A stretch of 64,000 nt of DNA from a virus (Duplodnaviria; Caudoviricetes), in IMG/VR virus record IMGVR_UViG_3300020434_000055; one strand, 5' to 3'. The position numbers and the translations under genes are program-made. The notes under the pieces are model-generated. The model was not told where the DNA came from and ran no database searches. It saw nothing but the letters and a program-made list of their open reading frames with translations. This document shows positions 5,250 to 22,903 of this stretch, one piece after another (position 1 is the first letter of the stretch; the number at the start of each line of letters is the position of its first letter).

Positions 5250-5441
5250 ATGAGAGATAAAATACATTTGGTTAAACATTCAGAAGGCTTATCAAAAGAA
5301 GCCAAAGAAAAACTATTGTTTAGAACACAACGTCAACCTGTTGAAGCAGGGGCTAATGGCACACTTCATTACACAATCAAAAAAGGTGCAAATGAAGGTA
5401 AGATAGCCAAACTCAAAAAATTAAAGAAACTTTCCGACTAA
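5250..5441 (+). CDS. Hypothetical protein
   Basis: ORF track; TAAGTA 5 nt upstream. Confidence 0.6.
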   Translation: MRDKIHLVKHSEGLSKEAKEKLLFRTQRQPVEAGANGTLHYTIKKGANEGKIAKLKKLKKLSD

Positions 5442-6428
5442 TTTAGTAATTAAATTAATATGTGATGTACTAGTGTTTAAACAATGTACTAGTTTGAATT
5501 CCGTTCCGCCTGCGTTTCTAAAAATCTTCTGACCTTCATTACCAATTTCATCTATAGTTTCTAAACAATCTGCTGAAAAGCCAGGACAGACTACTAAAAT
5601 TTTGTGTGGACCTTCTGCAGGTAATTTTTTTAAAGTTTCATCTAAAGCTGGATCAAACCAATCCTTTTTACGTCCAAGTCTACTTTGAAATACTGTTTCT
5701 ATTGGAATGTTATAAGGTTTCATTTGTTCTCTAATAAGTCGTGTAGTTTTAATACATTGACAGTAATAAGGATCACCTTTATCTAAAGTAATTTTTGGAA
5801 CATTATGATAACTTAAAACAATAGTATCAGGAGTCCACTCTAGTCTTTCTATTTCACGTTCTAAAGAACCAACTATTGCTTTAATATAATCATCGTCATC
5901 AAAGTATCTTGGAATAATTTGAACTTGTGGTTGCCATCTTTCTTTCATTAAAACTCTAAAAACTTCATCAGAAACAGTTGCAGTAGTAGATGAACTATAC
6001 TGTGGGAACAAAGGTAGTACAGTTATTTGTTCACATCCTTTATCCTTTAAACTTTTAATACCATCTGCTATACTTGGACCACCAAAACGTAAAGCCCACT
6101 CTACATCAATACCTGGCATATCAAGTTCTTTATCTAATAATTCAGCTTGACGTTTAGTAGTTGTTCTTAAAGGTGATCCATCTTTAGTCCATATACGTTT
6201 ATATGCTTTTGAAATCTTACCAGGTCTAAAAATTAAAATATAAAAGTTAAGAATTAACCACCATAGTATTGGATTAATATCTACTATTCTAGGTTCACTT
6301 AAAAATTCTTTAAGAAAATGTCTTATTTCTTTCCATGACGTTCCACTTGGCGTACCAAGGTTTACTACTAGTATTCCTTTACGTCCATGAGGTATTTTAG
6401 GGTGGTCTTTATGAATCATCTCGACCAA
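5421..6428 (-). CDS. hemH: Ferrochelatase
   Basis: GILVVNLGTP, FLKEFLSEPRIV, GSPL, LPLFPQYSSSTT, SYH, PYYCQC, FQSRLG, PGFSADCLETIDEI. Confidence 0.95.
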   Translation of the reverse strand: MVEMIHKDHPKIPHGRKGILVVNLGTPSGTSWKEIRHFLKEFLSEPRIVDINPILWWLILNFYILIFRPGKISKAYKRIWTKDGSPLRTTTKRQAELLDKELDMPGIDVEWALRFGGPSIADGIKSLKDKGCEQITVLPLFPQYSSSTTATVSDEVFRVLMKERWQPQVQIIPRYFDDDDYIKAIVGSLEREIERLEWTPDTIVLSYHNVPKITLDKGDPYYCQCIKTTRLIREQMKPYNIPIETVFQSRLGRKKDWFDPALDETLKKLPAEGPHKILVVCPGFSADCLETIDEIGNEGQKIFRNAGGTEFKLVHCLNTSTSHINLITKLVGKFL

Positions 6429-12959: not shown

Positions 12960-13622
12960 TTAAAGGTTTACTTGACTGGCTCCTTCACCTACTGTTCCTC
13001 GAACAAAACAATTAAATGCTAAAGACCATCTTATTGTATTTTCAGTTAAGTTAGGACTAACACTATGTAATAAGTGACTAGGAAACATAACCAAGTCCCA
13101 CATTTTTGGTTTGAAAGACCAACCTTCTGCATTATAAACATTTAAATCTATTTCTGTTGGATCACCATAATCTATTCTGGCTGTGTCTGTAAAAACATTC
13201 CTCCACATTCTATCTTTATGAAAATTAATATTTCCTGTGTCTCCTATATGTGATAGGTATAACACTCCGCTAATCAAAGAGTTGGCATGAGAGTGTTCCC
13301 CACTCCAATCATTTCGTTCGTATTTGTTCATCCAACTAGTCTCCATTACAAATGTATGTTTTTTATCTACGCCTAAAAAATTATGTACATAACTATCAAG
13401 TTTAAATTGAACTTCTTCTTTTAATGGTTTACAAATAAGTTCGTCTAAAACATGAACATTAGTTGTATTTTGAGCATTAGAATATAAATGTGGTTTGTAT
13501 TCCAAATTCTTAAGATAATCTATAATTTCATCACTGACAGGATTTATATTAGTTTTGCATAAAGGTATTGCAAATAAAGGTGTTACTTCATTATCGGTAA
13601 CGTGTTGTTTTGCTGTAGTCAT
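12960..13622 (-). CDS. 2OG-Fe(II) oxygenase-like protein (TIGR02466-like)
   Basis: TPLFAIP, SWMN, HSHANSLISGVLY, LVMFPSHLLHSV, SLAFN. Confidence 0.88.
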   Translation of the reverse strand: MTTAKQHVTDNEVTPLFAIPLCKTNINPVSDEIIDYLKNLEYKPHLYSNAQNTTNVHVLDELICKPLKEEVQFKLDSYVHNFLGVDKKHTFVMETSWMNKYERNDWSGEHSHANSLISGVLYLSHIGDTGNINFHKDRMWRNVFTDTARIDYGDPTEIDLNVYNAEGWSFKPKMWDLVMFPSHLLHSVSPNLTENTIRWSLAFNCFVRGTVGEGASQVNL

Positions 13623-14182
13623 TATTTAAAATTAGGTCCAGTAAGCCACCCTGTCATGCTTATTCTATTTCCTGATGTAACCGGTTCTACACCATGCAAG
13701 GTATATGGTGGAAATACAACAACCGATCCTTTTTTCATATCAATATATAATCTATTATCTTTATGGAAATCATATTGAATATAAAACTTTCCGCCTTCAA
13801 ATTCATCATTAAGAAGAGCTACCACTGATAGTTTACGACACATACCATTATCAAAATACATTGTGTCTTGATGACCATCATAATGATCTCCTTCTTTATA
13901 AAATAACAATTCAAACTGTGAAGGGCCTGATAAAACATATTTCCAAACACTATCATTAGCTTTATTTGTTAGGCCATATAAAGTTAAACAAATTGGATCA
14001 AATTCATCAAGGTGTACCATTGTAACACTTCTTATGGCTTTGTCTTTAGTTTCTTCTGAAGCTATTTCTCCTTCAATTCTCTTTTTATCTTCAGATCTTT
14101 TTATAGTTAAATCTATAAGTTCTGTAGGAAGAGTACCTCCCGGAAATTCCCAATAAATATTTTCTCTAATTGGTTTAGTCAT
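13622..14182 (-). CDS. 2OG-Fe(II) oxygenase (PKHD-type hydroxylase-like)
   Basis: Y.EGDHYDGHQD, RKLSVV.LLNDEFEGG, GSVVVFP...HGVEPVTSGNRISM.GW. Confidence 0.9.
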   Translation of the reverse strand: MTKPIRENIYWEFPGGTLPTELIDLTIKRSEDKKRIEGEIASEETKDKAIRSVTMVHLDEFDPICLTLYGLTNKANDSVWKYVLSGPSQFELLFYKEGDHYDGHQDTMYFDNGMCRKLSVVALLNDEFEGGKFYIQYDFHKDNRLYIDMKKGSVVVFPPYTLHGVEPVTSGNRISMTGWLTGPNFK

Positions 14183-14183
14183 A

Positions 14184-14765
14184 TTATCTTGGCAAACCTG
14201 CCCCGGAAATTGCAGAAGTGTAATTAAAAGTTATTACTACTCTTTGTTCATGTTTTTGTGGGCAAGTACTTGAATGATAATACTTTCCATCAAAATCTAT
14301 CCAACTATTTTGCGATGGTGTACTTCTTGCCTGTTCTGTATAAGATTCAGAATCTTTAGTTTCATTATAAATTATGGTATCCCCATCAGAAGCAGTAATA
14401 TAATATAATCCTACAGTATGTGGTTGTGGACACGCTTCTGGATTATCTACGTGGGGTGGATGAATTAATTCAAAAGGTACTCTTGTTAACATACCAAGTC
14501 TAACTCGATATAACTCTCTTAGTTCTAAATTTTGTCTATCAAGAGCTGATAATAAAATTGGTAGTGCAATATCAATTACATCTGACGTTTGTCCTCCTTT
14601 ATCTCTAGAATATATAAGATGACTAAAACTAGAACCATAAGACTTAACTGGATCGTTAAAATTAGCAGTAACAGTTGAACGATACCATGGCGTTTCTTGA
14701 CTATCTAATTTTAACCTCACCATATTATAATGATTTGGTCCAAGTAAATTACTGATTTGTTTCAT
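14184..14765 (-). CDS. 2OG-Fe(II) oxygenase-like protein
   Basis: HPPHVD, GLYYI..SDGDT, P..N....FDG..YHSS, RVVITFN. Confidence 0.8.
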   Translation of the reverse strand: MKQISNLLGPNHYNMVRLKLDSQETPWYRSTVTANFNDPVKSYGSSFSHLIYSRDKGGQTSDVIDIALPILLSALDRQNLELRELYRVRLGMLTRVPFELIHPPHVDNPEACPQPHTVGLYYITASDGDTIIYNETKDSESYTEQARSTPSQNSWIDFDGKYYHSSTCPQKHEQRVVITFNYTSAISGAGLPR

Positions 14766-14771
14766 GTGTTC

Positions 14772-15854
14772 CTATTTATTGGCCTTCTTTGACGTTGCTT
14801 TTCTGAATTGAAGAAACTCTCTATTTTGCTTAACACAATTAGTTAGAGTTTCAATAGTTTTTGGGTCTGTTGTTTTTATAATTCCTCCGCCTAAATTAAA
14901 AATATAAGATGAATTTTCAAATTGTCTAAGATACCATAACGCATTTCTTAAAACATTAATTTTTCCTAATGATGGATCAGCTGTTAAAATTTCTGGATCC
15001 ATTCCTCCTTGAACAGTATAATTAGGTAAATGTTTCATAGCCCATTTAGGGTCAACATCAGAACTGATACTAATAACATCAACGCCAGTCCAATGACAAA
15101 ATTCTTTAACATCTTTTCCTATATCTCTAGGGTAACCAATTATTGGAACATTTGGAAATTCTTTTTTTAATTTTTCAACAATATAAGCAGTTGGATTATA
15201 ACAAAAGTCAATAAGATAATCTTCTCCTAACTCACCTGCCCAGCTATCAAAAATTTGTACGATATCACAACCAGCTTTAATTTGTTCTGACAAATGCATA
15301 ACAATAAGATCACACAATTTTTCTAATCTAAACATTGAATCAAATTGATCTAATGATGCCGGATCTGTATTTTTAGATATAGTGTATGGTGAATTAGCAT
15401 TTGATTTTGATCCAGACATCATATATCTTAATAATGTCCATGGTGCTCCAGCAAAACCTATTAATGATTTTCCTTCATGTAATTCTTTACGAACTAATTT
15501 AATTGCTTCATACACTGGTTTAAGTTTTTCTTTTACAACTTCAATATCAGCATTAAACACCGCAGGGTCTAATGGATCTAACTTAGGTCCAGGATTATAA
15601 ACTAATCCTTGCCCCATAGCCCAAGGTATAACCAAAATATCAGAAAAAATTATCGCGGCATCAAGATCAAATCTTTCCATTGGTTGAAGAGTTATCGTTT
15701 TAGCTGTTTCAGGAGTAAGGCACATATCTAAAAATCCTTTACTCTTGTTTTTAATTTCCATATATTCAGGTAGATAACGACCTGCCTGACGCATATACCA
15801 AACTGGAAATAAACCAGTTTCACCATTCATTATTGTTCTATGAAGTCTATTCAT
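14772..15854 (-). CDS. hemE: Uroporphyrinogen decarboxylase
   Basis: PVWYMRQAGRYLPEY, ITLQP..RF.LDAAIIFSDIL, LIGFAGAPWTL..YM, QIFDSWAG, VQGGMDP, IFNLGGGI (His of the usual NLGHG replaced by Gly). Confidence 0.95.
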   Translation of the reverse strand: MNRLHRTIMNGETGLFPVWYMRQAGRYLPEYMEIKNKSKGFLDMCLTPETAKTITLQPMERFDLDAAIIFSDILVIPWAMGQGLVYNPGPKLDPLDPAVFNADIEVVKEKLKPVYEAIKLVRKELHEGKSLIGFAGAPWTLLRYMMSGSKSNANSPYTISKNTDPASLDQFDSMFRLEKLCDLIVMHLSEQIKAGCDIVQIFDSWAGELGEDYLIDFCYNPTAYIVEKLKKEFPNVPIIGYPRDIGKDVKEFCHWTGVDVISISSDVDPKWAMKHLPNYTVQGGMDPEILTADPSLGKINVLRNALWYLRQFENSSYIFNLGGGIIKTTDPKTIETLTNCVKQNREFLQFRKATSKKANK

Positions 15855-15855
15855 A

Positions 15856-15884
15856 TTGACATTACCTTATAAATCTATTATAAT
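15856..15884 (+). promoter_or_regulatory. Consensus sigma70 promoter
   Basis: TTGACA(15856-61)-17 nt-TATAAT(15879-84). Confidence 0.8.
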
Positions 15885-15920
15885 ACTAATTATCTGGTTA
15901 AACGAGTATATAATTAAAGT

Positions 15921-16076
15921 ATGAAACGTAAAAAATTTAGATTAATTAGTAAAAAGAAATCTGTAGCATTTAGAGAACTAGCAGAAGGCTTTTGGTGCAT
16001 TGCCATTAAAGGACGACATTGGGCACAATTCAAGCATTGGTACCAAGAGTGGTGGAAGCCATTATACTGGGATTAA
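15921..16076 (+). CDS. Small basic Trp-rich protein (51 aa), not in ORF track
   Basis: MKRKKFRLISKKKSVAFRELAEGFWCIAIKGRHWAQFKHWYQEWWKPLYWD*; downstream of a consensus promoter. Confidence 0.6.
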   Translation: MKRKKFRLISKKKSVAFRELAEGFWCIAIKGRHWAQFKHWYQEWWKPLYWD

Positions 16077-16094
16077 ACACAACCATAGATCCTA

Positions 16095-16123
16095 TTGACA
16101 TAAATCATAAAATATACTACAAT
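16095..16123 (+). promoter_or_regulatory. Sigma70 promoter for the tRNA-like pair
   Basis: TTGACA(16095-100)-17 nt-TACAAT(16118-23). Confidence 0.75.
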
Positions 16124-16143
16124 AAGAATGCCTGATAAAGTTA

Positions 16144-16220
16144 TGGCTGGTAGTGTAATCGTTAAGAAAGCACACTAGGATCTCCAATCCTAAAATCTTG
16201 GTTCAATCCAAGTCAGTTAT
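16144..16220 (+). tRNA. Non-canonical tRNA-like gene, best read as Gly(TCC)
   Basis: Acceptor TGGCTGG/TCAGTTA (three G:U pairs), D-stem GTGT/GCAC, anticodon stem TAGGA/TCCTA with loop TCTCCAA (C33), 4-nt variable loop, T-stem CTTGG/CCAAG with 6-nt loop TTCAAT, discriminator U, no D-loop GG, no CCA. Confidence 0.6.
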
Positions 16221-16242
16221 ATGAAAATATTAGGTATAACAC

Positions 16243-16331
16243 GCGAGTGTGGTGGAAATGTGATTAGACACACCGATTTCAGAGATCGGCACCCGTAGCC
16301 GGGTTTTATGAGTAAAATCTCATCACTCGCA
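16243..16331 (+). tRNA. Non-canonical type II tRNA-Leu(CAG)-like gene
   Basis: Perfect acceptor GCGAGTG/CACTCGC, anticodon stem CCGAT/ATCGG with loop TTCAGAG, variable arm ACCCG/CGGGT, T-stem ATGAG/CTCAT with 6-nt loop TAAAAT (no TTC), discriminator A, no D-loop GG, no CCA. Confidence 0.7.
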
Positions 16332-16335
16332 TATG

Positions 16336-16356
16336 GGGGTGCTAACGTGGCACCCC
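16336..16356 (+). terminator. GC-rich hairpin after the tRNA-like pair (terminator or processing signal)
   Basis: GGGGTGC/GCACCCC stem, 7-nt loop; no clear U-tract. Confidence 0.45.
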
Positions 16357-16406
16357 TAATAACTAATAACAGTTAATAAACGTTATTAACAATATGGAGA
16401 TGCCAA

Positions 16407-16490
16407 ATGGCTAAAAAGAAAAAAGCTAAAGCTAAAACTAAGAAAAAGAAAAGTAAAAGCAAAAGCAAAAAGAAAAAAAGTAGAAGATAA
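16407..16490 (+). CDS. Lys-rich 27-aa peptide, not in ORF track
   Basis: MAKKKKAKAKTKKKKSKSKSKKKKSRR*; GGAG SD upstream. Confidence 0.65.
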   Translation: MAKKKKAKAKTKKKKSKSKSKKKKSRR

Positions 16491-16603
16491 GAATAAAATC
16501 CCTTCACACTTATATTGGAATTCGGACGAGTTGGTTCAACTCTGACGTCTATAAGTGTGACTGGGGAGTTAAAAGTCCTTCAAAGACGCTACTTAACAAT
16601 CCG

Positions 16604-16632
16604 TTGACAATACCAAAATAACCAACTATAAT
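16604..16632 (+). promoter_or_regulatory. Consensus sigma70 promoter of the RNase P RNA
   Basis: TTGACA(16604-09)-17 nt-TATAAT(16627-32); expected start near 16639, which is the first base of helix P1. Confidence 0.85.
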
Positions 16633-16638
16633 ATAACC

Positions 16639-16797
16639 ATAACTGGATCATCGCTGGGATTTATATCCTAGAGGAAAGTCAGGACACAGGTGGATATGTG
16701 CGAGTTCAAATAGGATGCCAAATATTCGACCACCGGGGCATCGGGTAGAACGCTTAGATTAATGATGATTTAAAACAGAATCCTGCTTACGGGTTAT
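16639..16797 (+). ncRNA. rnpB: Minimal RNase P RNA (catalytic domain only; no S-domain, no P18)
   Basis: GAGGAAAGTCAGGAC (16671-85) and ACAGAATCCTGCTTA (16775-89) form P4 with the bulged U; P1, P2, P3, P5, P6, P15, P16 and the L15 GGU all pair; AGATTAATGA matches the conserved J18/2 block. Confidence 0.92.
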
Positions 16798-16811
16798 ATA
16801 AAGGAAAAGGT

Positions 16812-17024
16812 ATGGTTAAAACATTAAAAAAAGAATATGAAAAAGGTGGCTCCCAGCGACAACATATTTTAGATAAAGCAGTCAAATATATATTAGATAC
16901 TCGCTTTGGTACGCAAAATCATAAACACATTTTCTTAATAGAAGAAGTAGGTTTAACTGAAACTGAATATTTAGAATGTTTAAATAAAGCTACCAATGGG
17001 GGAGTAATTTGGAACACAAATTAA
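16812..17024 (+). CDS. Hypothetical protein
   Basis: ORF track; SD AAGG upstream. Confidence 0.6.
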   Translation: MVKTLKKEYEKGGSQRQHILDKAVKYILDTRFGTQNHKHIFLIEEVGLTETEYLECLNKATNGGVIWNTN

Positions 17025-17653
17025 AAATAAGTCGAATGATAGATATCATTCAAGCTCATGCCCTGAGCTATCCGGGTGGCAGGCATATTGATAAAAGAGT
17101 TATATGGGCAATGACTCAGGTGCCTAGACATTTATTTGTAAAACACTTTCCATACGAAGATAGACCTGTACCAATCGGACACGAACAAACTATCTCTCAA
17201 CCTTTCATTGTTGCTTATATGAGTGATGTTATTGGCTTACAACCATTGCATAAAGTATTAGAAATAGGAACAGGCTCAGGATACCAAGCGGCTATACTAT
17301 CTCATTTAGCACATGAAGTTTATTCAGTAGAAAGAATTCCAGAGTTAACTGCAAGTGCAAAAAAATTATTTGAACATTTAGAGTATGACAATATTAAAAC
17401 AAAAATAAGCGATGGCTATGATGGATGGTCTGAAAACGCACCTTATGATAGAATTATTGTGACAGCAATGGCTAGTGAAGTTCCTGTTGAATTAACAAAA
17501 CAATTAGTAGATGGAGGAACAATGATTATTCCTGTTAATGGATCATTATTACTAATCACTAAAAAGAAAGAGTTAGCAGGTGTTCCAATAATAGAGGAAC
17601 AAACTTTAATAGGAGTAAGGTTCGTACCGCTTGTGAAAGGCATAAATGCATAG
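17009..17653 (+). CDS. pcm: Protein-L-isoaspartate O-methyltransferase
   Basis: VPRHLFV, YEDRPVPIGHEQTISQP, KVLEIGTGSGYQAA, YSVERI, DGYDGW...APYDRIIVTA. Confidence 0.95.
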   Translation: MEHKLKISRMIDIIQAHALSYPGGRHIDKRVIWAMTQVPRHLFVKHFPYEDRPVPIGHEQTISQPFIVAYMSDVIGLQPLHKVLEIGTGSGYQAAILSHLAHEVYSVERIPELTASAKKLFEHLEYDNIKTKISDGYDGWSENAPYDRIIVTAMASEVPVELTKQLVDGGTMIIPVNGSLLLITKKKELAGVPIIEEQTLIGVRFVPLVKGINA

Positions 17654-17654
17654 T

Positions 17655-17731
17655 GGGGGTGTAGCTCAGTTGGTTAGAGCGATCGCCTGTCACGCGATAG
17701 GTCGAGGGTTCGAGTCCCTTCACTCCCGCCA
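17655..17731 (+). tRNA. tRNA-Asp(GTC)
   Basis: Canonical cloverleaf, anticodon loop CTGTCAC, TTCGAGT, discriminator G, encoded CCA. Confidence 0.97.
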
Positions 17732-17746
17732 AAAAAGGACCACTAA

Positions 17747-17998
17747 ATGAAATGGATAATAATTTTGTTTTTTATTTTTATATTTGGTTTGCCTATGTAC
17801 GCCTATTATTCGGTAAGCAGTGGACATTTCTTTCAAGTTAACGCAGGGTGTAAAGAGTGTACAGTAGAAGCAGTTGAAAAAATAAAGGCAAAATTAAAAG
17901 CAGAAAATAATATACGAGTAGAAAAAAATAAAAAAGCACTTCATGACGGAACTTATAAAGCAAAACCGTGGGCCGGGTGGCCGTGGGATAGAGAATAA
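17747..17998 (+). CDS. Small membrane-anchored hypothetical protein (CxxC)
   Basis: Hydrophobic N-terminus, GCKEC. Confidence 0.6.
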
Positions 17999-19437
17999 TG
18001 GAACAAGACAAAATACTTAGAGAACGATTTAAAAAAAAATACGAAGCAGGGTTCACTACTAATGTTGAATCAATAACATTACCACCTGGACTTGATGAAA
18101 GTGTTATAGAACAAATCTCAAAAATTAAAAAAGAACCTAAATGGTTACTTGAATTTAGATTAAAAGCATATGAAAGATGGAAATTACTTAAACAACCTGA
18201 CTGGGCTAATCTTGAAATAGAACCAATAGACTATCAAACCATATCATATTATTCAGCACCCAAACCAGGACCCAAGTCATATGATGATGTCGATCCTGAA
18301 ATTAAAAAAGACTTTGAAAAACTTGGTATACCTTTAGGGGAAAGAGCCCAACTTGCAGGTGTGGCTGTTGATGCCGTATTTGATTCTGTATCTGTTGCAA
18401 CTACGTTTAAAGATAAACTAGCAGAACTAGGAATTATATTCTGTCCATTTTCAGATGCAGTACAAAATCATCCAGACCTTGTAAAAAAATATATGGGATC
18501 AGTTATACCTATAAGTGATCATTCATTTGCCGCTTTAAATTCTGCTGTCTTTACAGATGGTTCATTTGTATATGTTCCTCCAGGTGTAAGATGTCCTATG
18601 GAACTATCAACATATTTTAGAATTAATGCGGCTAACACAGGACAATTTGAAAGAACATTAATTATAGCCGATGTAGGAAGTTATGTAAGTTACCTTGAAG
18701 GATGTACTGCTCCAATGAGAGATGAGAGTCAATTACACGCCGCTAATGTAGAACTTGTAGCACTTGATAATGCAGAAATAAAATACTCAACAATACAAAA
18801 TTGGTATCCAGGAGATCCTGTAACAGGTAAAGGTGGCATATACAATTTTGTAACTAAACGTGGAAAATGTAAAGGAAAAAATTCTAAAATTACTTGGACA
18901 CAATTTGAAACTGGATCACGAATAACTTGGAAGTATCCATCGTGTTTGTTAATGGGTGACAACTCTGTAGGAGAATTTTATTCTGTTGCACTTACAAACG
19001 GTAAACAACAAGCAGATACAGGAACTAAAATGATCCATTTAGGTAAAAATACTAAAAGCACAATTATTTCAAAAGGAATATCTGCAGGACATTCTAAAAA
19101 CACATACAGAGGACTTGTAAGAATTTCTAAGAATGCAAGTAACTCAAAAAATTTTACACAATGTGATTCATTAATGTTGGGTAGTCATTGTTCTGCTAGT
19201 ACAGTACCTTATATTGAAAATAAAAATTCAACAAGTAATTGCAGTCACGAAGCCACAACATCTAAACTAGATGATGAACAATTATTTTATATAATGTCGA
19301 GAGGATTAAAAGACGAGGATGCTAGAAATATGCTCGTAATGGGTTTCTGTAAAGAAGTATTTCAAAAACTACCAATGGAATTTGCCGTAGAGGCTAATAA
19401 ACTATTAGAAGTTAGTATGGAAGGAGCAATAGGATAA
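17998..19437 (+). CDS. sufB: Fe-S cluster assembly protein SufB
   Basis: [66 protein letters not shown]. Confidence 0.97.
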
Positions 19438-21881: not shown

Positions 21882-22073
21882 TTATTTGTAATAGTCTAAA
21901 TCTTTTTCCTTCTTGAACTTACTTAAAATCTTTTGTACAAATTCAACAACGTATCCAGTCCATTGTACAAGCAATGCCCATATTATTACACTTAAAAATA
22001 ATACTACGCAAGTTGGAATCCATATCATAAAGAATAAGGCACTTCCTATAGTTTCTATTATATTTTTTACCAT
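21882..22073 (-). CDS. Small membrane protein
   Basis: Long hydrophobic stretch; overlaps hemF stop. Confidence 0.55.
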   Translation of the reverse strand: MVKNIIETIGSALFFMIWIPTCVVLFLSVIIWALLVQWTGYVVEFVQKILSKFKKEKDLDYYK

Positions 22074-22903
22074 TTGACCTCCGGTGGTAACGACATTAAT
22101 ATTGCGTCCATATTTCCTCCTGTTTGTAATCCAAATTTTGTTCCACGATCATACATTAAATTAAATTCAACGTACCTTCCTCTTTTAAATAATTGTTTTT
22201 CTTTATCCTTTTCATCCCAAACATAATTTTGATTTTGTAAAACAATATTACTCATAAGAGAATTAAAAGTTCTACCAATATCTTTCACAAATTCCATATC
22301 TTTATCAAAGTCTTTAAAATGATAATCAAAAAATAAACCACCTATACCACGAGGCTCTTTTCTGTGTGGCAAATAAAAGTATTCATCGCACCACTCAGAA
22401 AACTTAGAATAATACTCTTCATCGTGTTTGTTACACATTAATTCGAGTTGAGTATGGTACCAATCTTTTTGTTTATCATTTTCAATACAAGGAGTAACAT
22501 CCATTCCGCCACCGAACCAACATTTCGTAGTACAAATAAATCTAGTATTAAAATGCATTGCAGGAATTTTAGGATTCTTTGGATGTAGAACAACCGAAAT
22601 ACCTGACGCCCAATAATTAGGATCTTTCTCTGTACCTGGTATTTGTTTTCTCATAAGGTCATTAAACTCTCCTGTTACTCTTGAATAATTTACCGTTCCT
22701 TTTTCAAAAACATTTCCTTGAATAACAAAATGTTCTTGATACCATCCTTCTCTTTGTGAAGTTTTATGGCTTTTCATTTTAGCAGGATTTGTTGGATAAA
22801 ATTCTTTTTCTAATGCATCTATATTTTTACGAATGTCATGTTGTAAAGATTGAAACCAAGTAGTAGCTATCTCTTGGTATTTTAATTTTGATTTGATTTT
22901 CAC
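22067..22903 (-). CDS. hemF: Oxygen-dependent coproporphyrinogen III oxidase
   Basis: GNVFEKG.VNYS.V.G, WASGISVVLHP.NP.IP.MHFN.R, WFGGGMD.TP, CDEYFYLPHR.E.RGIGGLFFD, RGRYVEFNL.YDRGT.FGL. Confidence 0.97.
   Translation of the reverse strand: MKIKSKLKYQEIATTWFQSLQHDIRKNIDALEKEFYPTNPAKMKSHKTSQREGWYQEHFVIQGNVFEKGTVNYSRVTGEFNDLMRKQIPGTEKDPNYWASGISVVLHPKNPKIPAMHFNTRFICTTKCWFGGGMDVTPCIENDKQKDWYHTQLELMCNKHDEEYYSKFSEWCDEYFYLPHRKEPRGIGGLFFDYHFKDFDKDMEFVKDIGRTFNSLMSNIVLQNQNYVWDEKDKEKQLFKRGRYVEFNLMYDRGTKFGLQTGGNMDAILMSLPPEVKW

Follow-up and report, generated by a model that had tools for sequence, protein, structure and literature searches.

Two phage tRNA descendants with a dismantled corner, maintained by selection and present in RNA libraries

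The DNA analysed here, a stretch of 64,000 nucleotides (nt) from the IMG/VR virus record IMGVR_UViG_3300020434_000055 (Duplodnaviria; Caudoviricetes; hereafter, the window), is AT-rich (about 33% GC) and originates from an uncultured marine jumbo T4-like phage. It carries two small neighboring RNA genes, designated t1 and t2, which are a real, selected pair of tRNA-derived RNAs with a dismantled corner, present in RNA libraries:

16143-16220, plus strand: t1, a tRNA-derived RNA, recognized by its minimum-energy cloverleaf, its relatives and RNA-library contigs
16243-16331, plus strand: t2, a class II, tRNA-Leu(CAG)-type RNA, recognized by its minimum-energy five-way cloverleaf, its relatives and RNA-library contigs

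The cloverleaves of both RNAs were obtained as unconstrained minimum-energy folds (z = -3.4 for t1 and -3.7 for t2). The acceptor-type stem of t1 comprises 8 base pairs (bp; ATGGCTGG/TCAGTTAT) and is followed by a 4-bp D stem (GTGT/GCAC) with a 13-nt D loop devoid of GG, two linker nucleotides between the D and anticodon stems, the anticodon arm TAGGA-TCTCCAA-TCCTA (5-bp stem; anticodon UCC, C33), a 4-nt variable loop and the T arm CTTGG-TTCAAT-CCAAG (5-bp stem, 6-nt loop). The D arm of t1 is extendable, as 4 bp, an A.A and 2-3 further bp under a cap loop of 4-5 nt. In t2, the acceptor GCGAGTG/CACTCGC (7 bp) with the discriminator A (A73) encloses a 3-bp D stem with a 14-nt D loop, again without GG, the anticodon arm CCGAT-TTCAGAG-ATCGG (anticodon CAG, 5-bp stem, 7-nt loop with U33 and A37), a long variable arm of 5 bp and the T arm ATGAG-TAAAAT-CTCAT (5-bp stem, 6-nt loop). 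Thereby t2 possesses every standard cloverleaf element considered (7-bp acceptor, 5-bp anticodon stem, 7-nt loop with U33, 5-bp T stem), while t1 departs from the standard in C33, the 2-nt linker and the outer stem, which is of 8 bp in the window and 9 bp in the relatives. CCA is absent directly 3' of both genes. The first-pass annotation of this DNA had described cloverleaves with intact stems, 6-nt T loops, no D-loop GG and no CCA, preceded by a TTGACA-17-TACAAT promoter, closed by a GC hairpin and lying about 300 nt from rnpB; each of these features was found where it had been placed, the last distance being 308 nt.

In canonical tRNAs, the corner is formed by a 7-nt T loop with U54-U55-C56 and by G18G19 of the D loop. 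The T loops found in the window and in the two related lineages described below, A and B, are TTCAAT, TTAAT or TTGAA in t1 and TAAAAT in t2, and GG occurs in none of the D loops. Nor was a replacement loop-loop contact found, as the longest complement between D and T loops reaches 3-4 bp, a length attained by shuffled loops in 13-87% of trials.

Relatives of the pair were recovered by a hemE-anchored search in combination with an exact-pattern scan. They revealed two further lineages bearing t1 and t2 in the same gene order: A (contigs L014/L017, L052, L053, L055) and B (L054, L056). The conserved block consists, in this order, of a 51-amino-acid (aa) basic open reading frame (ORF), the promoter, t1, t2, a GC hairpin and a poly-lysine micro-ORF, the window's flanking features being the following:

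15921-16076, plus strand: basic, Trp-rich ORF of 51 aa, immediately preceding the t1 promoter in every lineage
16095-16123, plus strand: sigma-70-type promoter TTGACA-17-TACAAT of the t1-t2 unit, with 11 of 12 consensus positions
16335-16357, plus strand: GC-rich hairpin after t2 (-18.2 kcal/mol, z = -4.2), with no U tract behind
16407-16490, plus strand: 27-aa poly-lysine micro-ORF with a GGAG Shine-Dalgarno (SD) sequence, always downstream of t1 and t2

The interior of t2 is identical at 75 of 75 positions in lineages A and B, in contrast to the t1-t2 spacer (24-41% identity) and hemE (about 75%). The changes seen in the stems are largely compensatory: pairs 2 and 6 of the t2 acceptor change on both sides (C-G to U-A and U-A to A-U), the outer anticodon-stem pair and the middle T-stem pair of t1 both change from U-A to C-G, and the t1 acceptor is re-paired throughout, with 8 bp in the window versus 9 bp in the relatives; a single U.U in the t1 acceptor stem of lineage B is the sole broken pair. 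The anticodon loop of t1 is invariant among the three lineages. Its first acceptor pair and discriminator vary (U-A/U, A-U/A, U.U/A), and so does its T loop, in length and in sequence (TTCAAT, TTAAT, TTGAA, with TTCAGT in one RNA contig). This pattern indicates that selection keeps the stems of t1 and t2 paired and the core of t2 invariant.

The flanking features are likewise retained. Lineages A and B have a -35 TTGACA and a -10-like hexamer (TAAACT, TACACT) at the place of the promoter, although promoter-like sites as a class are no commoner in the window than in its shuffles; the GC hairpin is kept with a variant loop. The poly-lysine ORF, of about 36 aa in lineage A and 32 aa in lineage B (L054:5971-6069), preserves its SD, its ATG start and a C-terminal SRR-stop in all three lineages, its length changing in frame, and lies 3' of t1-t2 in each of them, whether an RNase P gene is present or not. 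The 51-aa ORF shares 83-89% nucleotide identity with its counterparts in lineages A and B and has just two related protein clusters among 5.8 billion proteins; the small flanking proteins found no family match in Pfam and PHROG. A coding reading of the 25-aa ORF at 16221-16298 was rejected, as it has no SD and a TGA breaks its frame in lineage B.

Several further potential pairings were noticed at this locus. At 16505-16560, a 10-bp stem (CACACTTATA/TATAAGTGTG) surrounds the hairpin GAGTT-GGTTC-AACTC (z = -3.4); the inner hairpin is kept in lineages A and B and is followed there by a second copy of the post-t2 GGGG..CCCC hairpin. The anticodon-loop region AUCUCCA of t1 (16181-16187) is complementary to UGGAGAU (16394-16400), located at the micro-ORF's SD; the complementarity spans 7, 6 and 5 nt across the three lineages and may reflect SD composition, since any SD would match. 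The anticodon loop of t2 can pair with CUCUGA in the next hairpin.

The sequence of t1 and t2 was also sought in RNA libraries, of which four runs were examined; 20 other listed runs have small shares and were given no weight. Short contigs (138-334 nt) on 16130-16410 were present in three of the four, coming from three studies, and the RNase P RNA located further downstream was covered by contigs in two. One t1 contig is flanked by adapters on both sides, which defines a 115-nt insert spanning 16142-16256; another displays a T-loop variant (A>G at 16206), and a third has the hairpin loop of the relatives and thus comes from a close relative. The contigs reach from t1 across t2 and the hairpin as far as the first nucleotides of the micro-ORF. 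A contig start at 16130 lies 7 nt after the -10 hexamer, which is no proof of a transcription start, and contig cover is lacking on orf51 and hemE, which is no proof against DNA carry-over. Since the contigs cross the GC hairpin as far as 16410, the latter is probably not a full terminator. From these data we claim no more than the presence of t1/t2 sequence in RNA libraries of several studies. The first-pass annotation had proposed covariation at homologous loci as a check, and had stated that canonical loops or random stem mismatches in related phages, or a lack of expression, would refute its proposal. The stems proved to stay paired via compensatory changes, the loops of the relatives are non-canonical as well, and contigs are found in RNA libraries of three studies.

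The standard tRNA finders, by comparison, were of little help. Neither t1 nor t2 was detected by ARAGORN with default settings. Its relaxed modes (-ps80 and -mt) detect both, but were rejected as support, since they give 24 and 17 hits in the window versus 21-36 and 9-18 in shuffles. With the Rfam tRNA model (RF00005; gathering cut-off 29 bits), t1 of the window scores 33.7 bits, in the sensitive mode only; t1 of lineages A and B was unreported at E <= 5, and t2 was unreported even when searched alone. By the family's own test, t2 would fall outside the Rfam tRNA family and t1 is marginal, and it is on the relatives and the RNA data, not on the tRNA finders, that the non-chance status of the pair rests. 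Rfam models of transfer-messenger RNA (tmRNA) and YrlA found no match in 15850-17900 at E <= 10, and strong matches to permuted tmRNA in two related contigs (L005 and L011, see below) show that such models work on DNA of this kind. A BLAST search of t1-t2 against 50,697 phage records returned no match. Exact-pattern scans (a 17-mer and a 20-mer of t2, a 15-mer of t1) gave mostly chance matches (L015, L016, L018-L049, L050, L051, L058), among which that of L058 falls in an Altererythrobacter coding region, and they yielded no clue to the host.

The descent of the pair was analyzed with two covariance models, R1 built from t2 and R2 from t1. The R1 model matched T4 tRNA-Ser (42.9 bits), the tRNA-Ser(UGA) of L005 (40.5 bits) and the tRNA-Leu of L008 (35.7 bits), and among 18 class II tRNAs the one nearest to t2 is a phage tRNA-Leu, at 55% identity. 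The best R1 match being a tRNA-Ser, a serine body with a leucine anticodon (a Candida-like CUG recoder) was considered and dropped, as the acceptor, A73 and the D arm are Leu-type. In particular, t2 has its acceptor GCGAG../..CTCGC with A73 in common with T4 tRNA-Leu and its D arm GGTGGAA..AGACAC in common with the L008 tRNA-Leu, and for this reason it is taken as a remodelled phage tRNA-Leu-type gene, in which the D-loop GG has given way to GTGATT and TTCGAAT to TAAAAT. The R2 model reaches canonical tRNAs at 18-34 bits. The D arm of t1 resembles that of T4 tRNA-Arg (GGTGTAAT-GG-ATAGCA), the GG being replaced by a 6-7-nt insert able to extend the D helix; t1 is likewise tRNA-derived, its source being beyond assignment to any tRNA type. 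Judged from these alignments, both corner loops were remodelled in both RNAs, the D loop being enlarged with loss of GG and the T loop cut to 5-6 nt.

Downstream of the pair, beyond the micro-ORF, the window encodes an unusually small ribozyme:

16639-16801, plus strand: S-domain-less RNase P RNA of 163 nt (RF00010, 75.9 bits; 155 model positions replaced by 5 nt)

It starts 308 nt downstream of t2 and is a neighbor outside the conserved t1-t2 module. At its position, lineages A and B have an ORF for an 80-88-aa basic protein, and no RNase P match was found in the 43.6-kb contig of lineage A. Conversely, the ribozyme core is common to 13 other phage contigs, in none of which t1 or t2 was found by BLAST; five ribozyme-bearing records, one of them a complete 328-kb genome with terminal repeats, yielded neither by BLAST, R1 or R2, a single 20.5-bit model match being rejected because it falls in coding DNA. 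In 7 of the 13 loci, no more than about 10 nt separate the ribozyme 3' end from the start of a canonical tRNA, and 4 others have the ribozyme inside or next to an array of canonical tRNAs. In an Rfam scan of six loci, the ribozyme-tRNA gap was -2 to +11 nt and all tRNA matches scored 53-76 bits, none of them in the degenerate range. The ribozyme of the window has retained CGGGUA in its P15 loop region, a segment that we take to dock the substrate 3' CCA, an end that t1 and t2 do not encode. The t1-t2 module occurs with or without the mini RNase P as a neighbor, and the mini RNase P family lives with normal tRNAs; hence, its S-domain loss would not be explained by co-evolved corner-less substrates.

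Two observations on the ribozyme locus itself may be added. In contigs L001, L003, L005, L006, L011, L012 and L013, the mini RNase P is followed directly by a canonical tRNA (Asp, Ala, Ser or Gln; e.g., L003:8982-9211 and L013:1545-1779), which resembles a ribozyme-substrate tandem, whereas in the window it is followed by a 70-aa ORF. Besides, a sharp mosaic boundary was noticed (window 16811-18835 versus 13317-16496; L014): orf70, pcm and tRNA-Asp are 94-95% identical to lineage A, while the stretch from hemE to the poly-lysine ORF is only about 71-75% identical, and the break falls at the RNase P gene of the window, that is, at the 80-88-aa basic ORF of the relatives.

The wider surroundings of t1-t2 comprise genes for uroporphyrinogen decarboxylase, ferrochelatase, coproporphyrinogen oxidase, many 2OG-Fe(II) oxygenases, PCMT, SufB, NadA and DnaK. 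The three heme-pathway genes (ferrochelatase at 5421-6428, uroporphyrinogen decarboxylase at 14772-15854 and coproporphyrinogen oxidase at 22067-22903) stand among at least seven 2OG-Fe(II) oxygenase paralogues. A gene set similar to that of the window is known from published pelagimyophages (PMC7029224). Two of the ribozyme-bearing relatives encode a permuted (two-piece) alphaproteobacterial tmRNA (L005:10556-10850, 152.8 bits; L011:2657-2954, 131.5 bits), located about 1.3-1.6 kb upstream of the mini RNase P, which is both a clue to the host and an unusual phage cargo. Considering the two-piece tmRNA of the relatives and the pelagimyophage-like gene set, the host is likely an alphaproteobacterium, perhaps SAR11. 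As to other tRNA genes, the three canonical ones of the window (Ala, Asp and Thr) all encode CCA. ARAGORN reported a tRNA-Asn(GUU) of class II length (>82 nt) in related contigs, from L007:26 and L002:3799 onward, and a 90-nt tRNA-Ile(UAU) at L010:8854-8943.

What the two RNAs do has to be judged against several possibilities. They may be working tRNAs of unusual, mitochondrial-like build, with t2 decoding CUG as leucine, t1 decoding GGA/GGG as glycine and CCA added to both after transcription, a proposal that is unlikely in our estimation. For it speak the Leu-type acceptor of t2, A73, a canonical anticodon arm (U33, A37), the long variable arm and the invariant core, as well as the share of GGA among Gly codons (41%). 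On the other side, CUG accounts for just 13 of the 1137 Leu codons (1.1%) in 43 ORFs of the window, and t2 as a decoder would have almost nothing to read, since its CAG anticodon with C34 reads only CUG. The contig of lineage A also encodes a canonical tRNA-Gly(UCC), 5 kb away. Because CUG is rare, CCA is not encoded, t1 has C33 and a variable acceptor, discriminator and T loop, and lineage A possesses this tRNA-Gly(UCC), ordinary decoding by t1 and t2 appears unlikely. Bacterial glycyl-tRNA synthetase identity does not fit the variable first acceptor pairs and discriminator of t1, and bacterial leucyl-tRNA synthetase uses the G18G19/C56 corner, both of which count against translation; so does the CCA encoded by the phage's genuine tRNAs and not by t1 and t2. 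A working tRNA of this build might, for its part, resist a nuclease cutting the normal T loop: the bacterial Schlafen nuclease Cash cuts the T-loop UUC motif, and changes of U54 or U55 block the cutting (PMC13462974), so that an enzyme of the Cash type would be blocked by loss of the motif, which neither t2 nor the t1 of lineages A and B contains.

Processing in cis offers another explanation, one to which we assign a rather low likelihood: t1 and t2 would be stability or processing modules (tRNA punctuation), i.e., leaders cut by RNase P or RNase Z or 5'-end shields that mature the message of the poly-lysine micro-ORF. The RNA-library contigs running from t1 via t2 and the hairpin into the micro-ORF start, the lack of a U tract behind the hairpin and the conserved t1-t2-hairpin-ORF order agree with it, although the contigs are no proof of a single transcript. 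Moreover, a cleavage signal needs shape and not sequence, yet the 75-nt interior of t2 and the t1 anticodon loop are invariant beside spacers of 24-41% identity. That the two are tRNA pseudogenes in slow decay and still transcribed, close to the alternative of ordinary decay offered by the first-pass annotation, seems very unlikely. The T and D loops of t1 do vary, both in sequence and in length, the Rfam tRNA model misses the t1 copies of lineages A and B at E <= 5, and both genes are without CCA; but all changed stem pairs save one remain paired, the t2 interior shows 0 changes in 75 nt next to the diverged spacers, the promoter is conserved, and the non-canonical loops have been kept in RNAs that occur in RNA libraries. 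The same annotation had suggested that t1 and t2 are substrates matched to an RNase P whose missing S-domain leaves it unable to read the tRNA corner. A ribozyme comprising the C domain alone needs no T-loop contact (PMC5839562), and in this one genome it does lie 308 nt from t1-t2. The suggestion nevertheless found no co-occurrence in either direction: lineages A and B keep t1/t2 with no ribozyme at the locus, the five ribozyme-bearing records are devoid of t1/t2, canonical tRNAs adjoin the ribozyme elsewhere, and CCA is missing from t1/t2 while the ribozyme retains CGGGUA. Dedicated substrates are therefore very improbable.

As decoding is unlikely, decay is disfavored and a mere processing signal needs no invariant 75-nt core, we are led to RNAs that would act by being bound. 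The reading we tentatively favor, while giving it somewhat less than an even chance, takes up the second suggestion of the first-pass annotation (decoys or inhibitors of host tRNA-binding and anticodon-nuclease defences): t1 and t2 would be non-decoding tRNA mimics binding or titrating a candidate tRNA-recognizing protein. No longer serving as ordinary translation adaptors, they would bind or titrate a protein that reads the acceptor and anticodon arms and not the corner; candidates on the host side are nucleases or other enzymes directed at tRNA, and on the phage side proteins such as the two tiny basic ones encoded next to the pair. The invariant anticodon arms and the t2 core point to sequence-specific recognition, and, since the 51-aa ORF and the 27-36-aa poly-lysine ORF accompany the pair throughout, the whole may be a small RNA-protein module. 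There is precedent for phage tRNAs countering tRNA-cutting defences, namely the T5 tRNA-Lys against PARIS (PMC11464382) and a phage tRNA-Tyr against retron effectors (PMC11555353). The T-loop-cutting nuclease Cash described above (PMC13462974) is a further precedent. Going further, one may imagine the conserved block as a phage ribonucleoprotein countermeasure, in which corner-dismantled mimics soak up a candidate host tRNA-directed nuclease or tRNA-sensing enzyme, e.g., a T-loop- or anticodon-cutting Schlafen or a PrrC-type enzyme, remaining uncut themselves and leaving translation undisturbed; this extension we consider improbable.

Several points weigh against mimicry. Apart from the corner and CCA, t2 keeps all that a tRNA-Leu needs (7-bp acceptor, A73, anticodon arm with U33, 5-bp T stem), and an invariant core is also what is expected of a working tRNA. 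Similar loops occur in mitochondrial tRNAs that do function, and a CCA end can be supplied post-transcriptionally. The covariation comes from three close lineages with few independent events, the inner helices of t2 being invariant and thus outside the covariation test, and the contigs are silent on transcript ends, strand, continuity, processing and charging.

The usual view of phage-encoded tRNAs is that they assist with codon usage; more recently, they have also been seen as replacements for tRNAs that defence systems cut. In the present phage, strong selection appears to act on two tRNA descendants deprived of the corner and of the CCA end, one of which matches a codon that the phage hardly uses. 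Were they mimics or sponges, an RNA-based layer would be added to the phage-host conflict, and the pair would show which tRNA features the partner protein reads. The negative result obtained with RNase P matters as well, since a mini RNase P family apparently works beside normal tRNAs.

In the literature searched on phage tRNA-like and non-canonical tRNAs, we found no description of RNAs like t1 and t2. The closest relatives by sequence are class II tRNAs of the T4 family (T4 tRNA-Leu(UAA), T4 tRNA-Ser(UGA), L008 tRNA-Leu and L005 tRNA-Ser), with which t2 aligns over its full length (R1 scores of 36-43 bits) and has in common the long variable arm and the 5-bp anticodon and T stems. It differs from them in the T loop TAAAAT with no U55/C56 equivalent, in GTGATT instead of GG, and in the absence of CCA, the rare-codon anticodon CAG and the lack of an Rfam match. 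In shape, the pair resembles metazoan mitochondrial tRNAs, which also combine intact stems with reduced or variable loops free of G18G19/U55C56 contacts and do not encode CCA; the mitochondrial mode of ARAGORN draws both RNAs as cloverleaves, but it fires at chance frequency in the window. The resemblance is one of shape only, as t1 and t2 are encoded by a phage, in a bacterial context in which every neighboring tRNA is canonical.

Small stable RNAs of T4, RNAC and RNAD (species 1 and 2 RNAs), are encoded beside tRNA genes and have no known function (PMC3014915, PMC9697503). RNAC ends in a tRNA-like T arm, which is canonical (GGTTCGAATCC), unlike those of t1 and t2; in L057, T4 rnaC/rnaD gave no R1 or R2 match, the models matching there just T4 tRNA-Ser and tRNA-Arg. 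Allo-tRNAs and tRNA-Sec-like molecules, some of the former being thought non-translational, have an 8/4 or 9/3 acceptor branch and a long D stem with a tetraloop (PMC5389517), and t1 similarly has an acceptor-type stem of 8-9 bp and an extendable D arm. The allo-tRNA definition (8/4, 9/3 or 8/5 branch, long variable arm, 6-bp D stem with tetraloop) does not cover either RNA: t1, whose variable loop has 4 nt, is 8/5 in the window or 9/5 in lineages A and B, whereas t2 is 7/5. By these comparisons, t1 and t2 are neither tmRNA- nor Y-RNA-like, are unrelated to RNAC and RNAD of T4, and do not appear to be allo-tRNAs. With the anti-defence phage tRNAs (PARIS, retron) they share being phage-borne RNAs of the tRNA family altered in a loop that host nucleases target. 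Those tRNAs, however, are canonical and decoding, carry small anticodon-loop changes and have a known matching nuclease, whereas in t1 and t2 the whole corner is remodelled and decoding looks dispensable.

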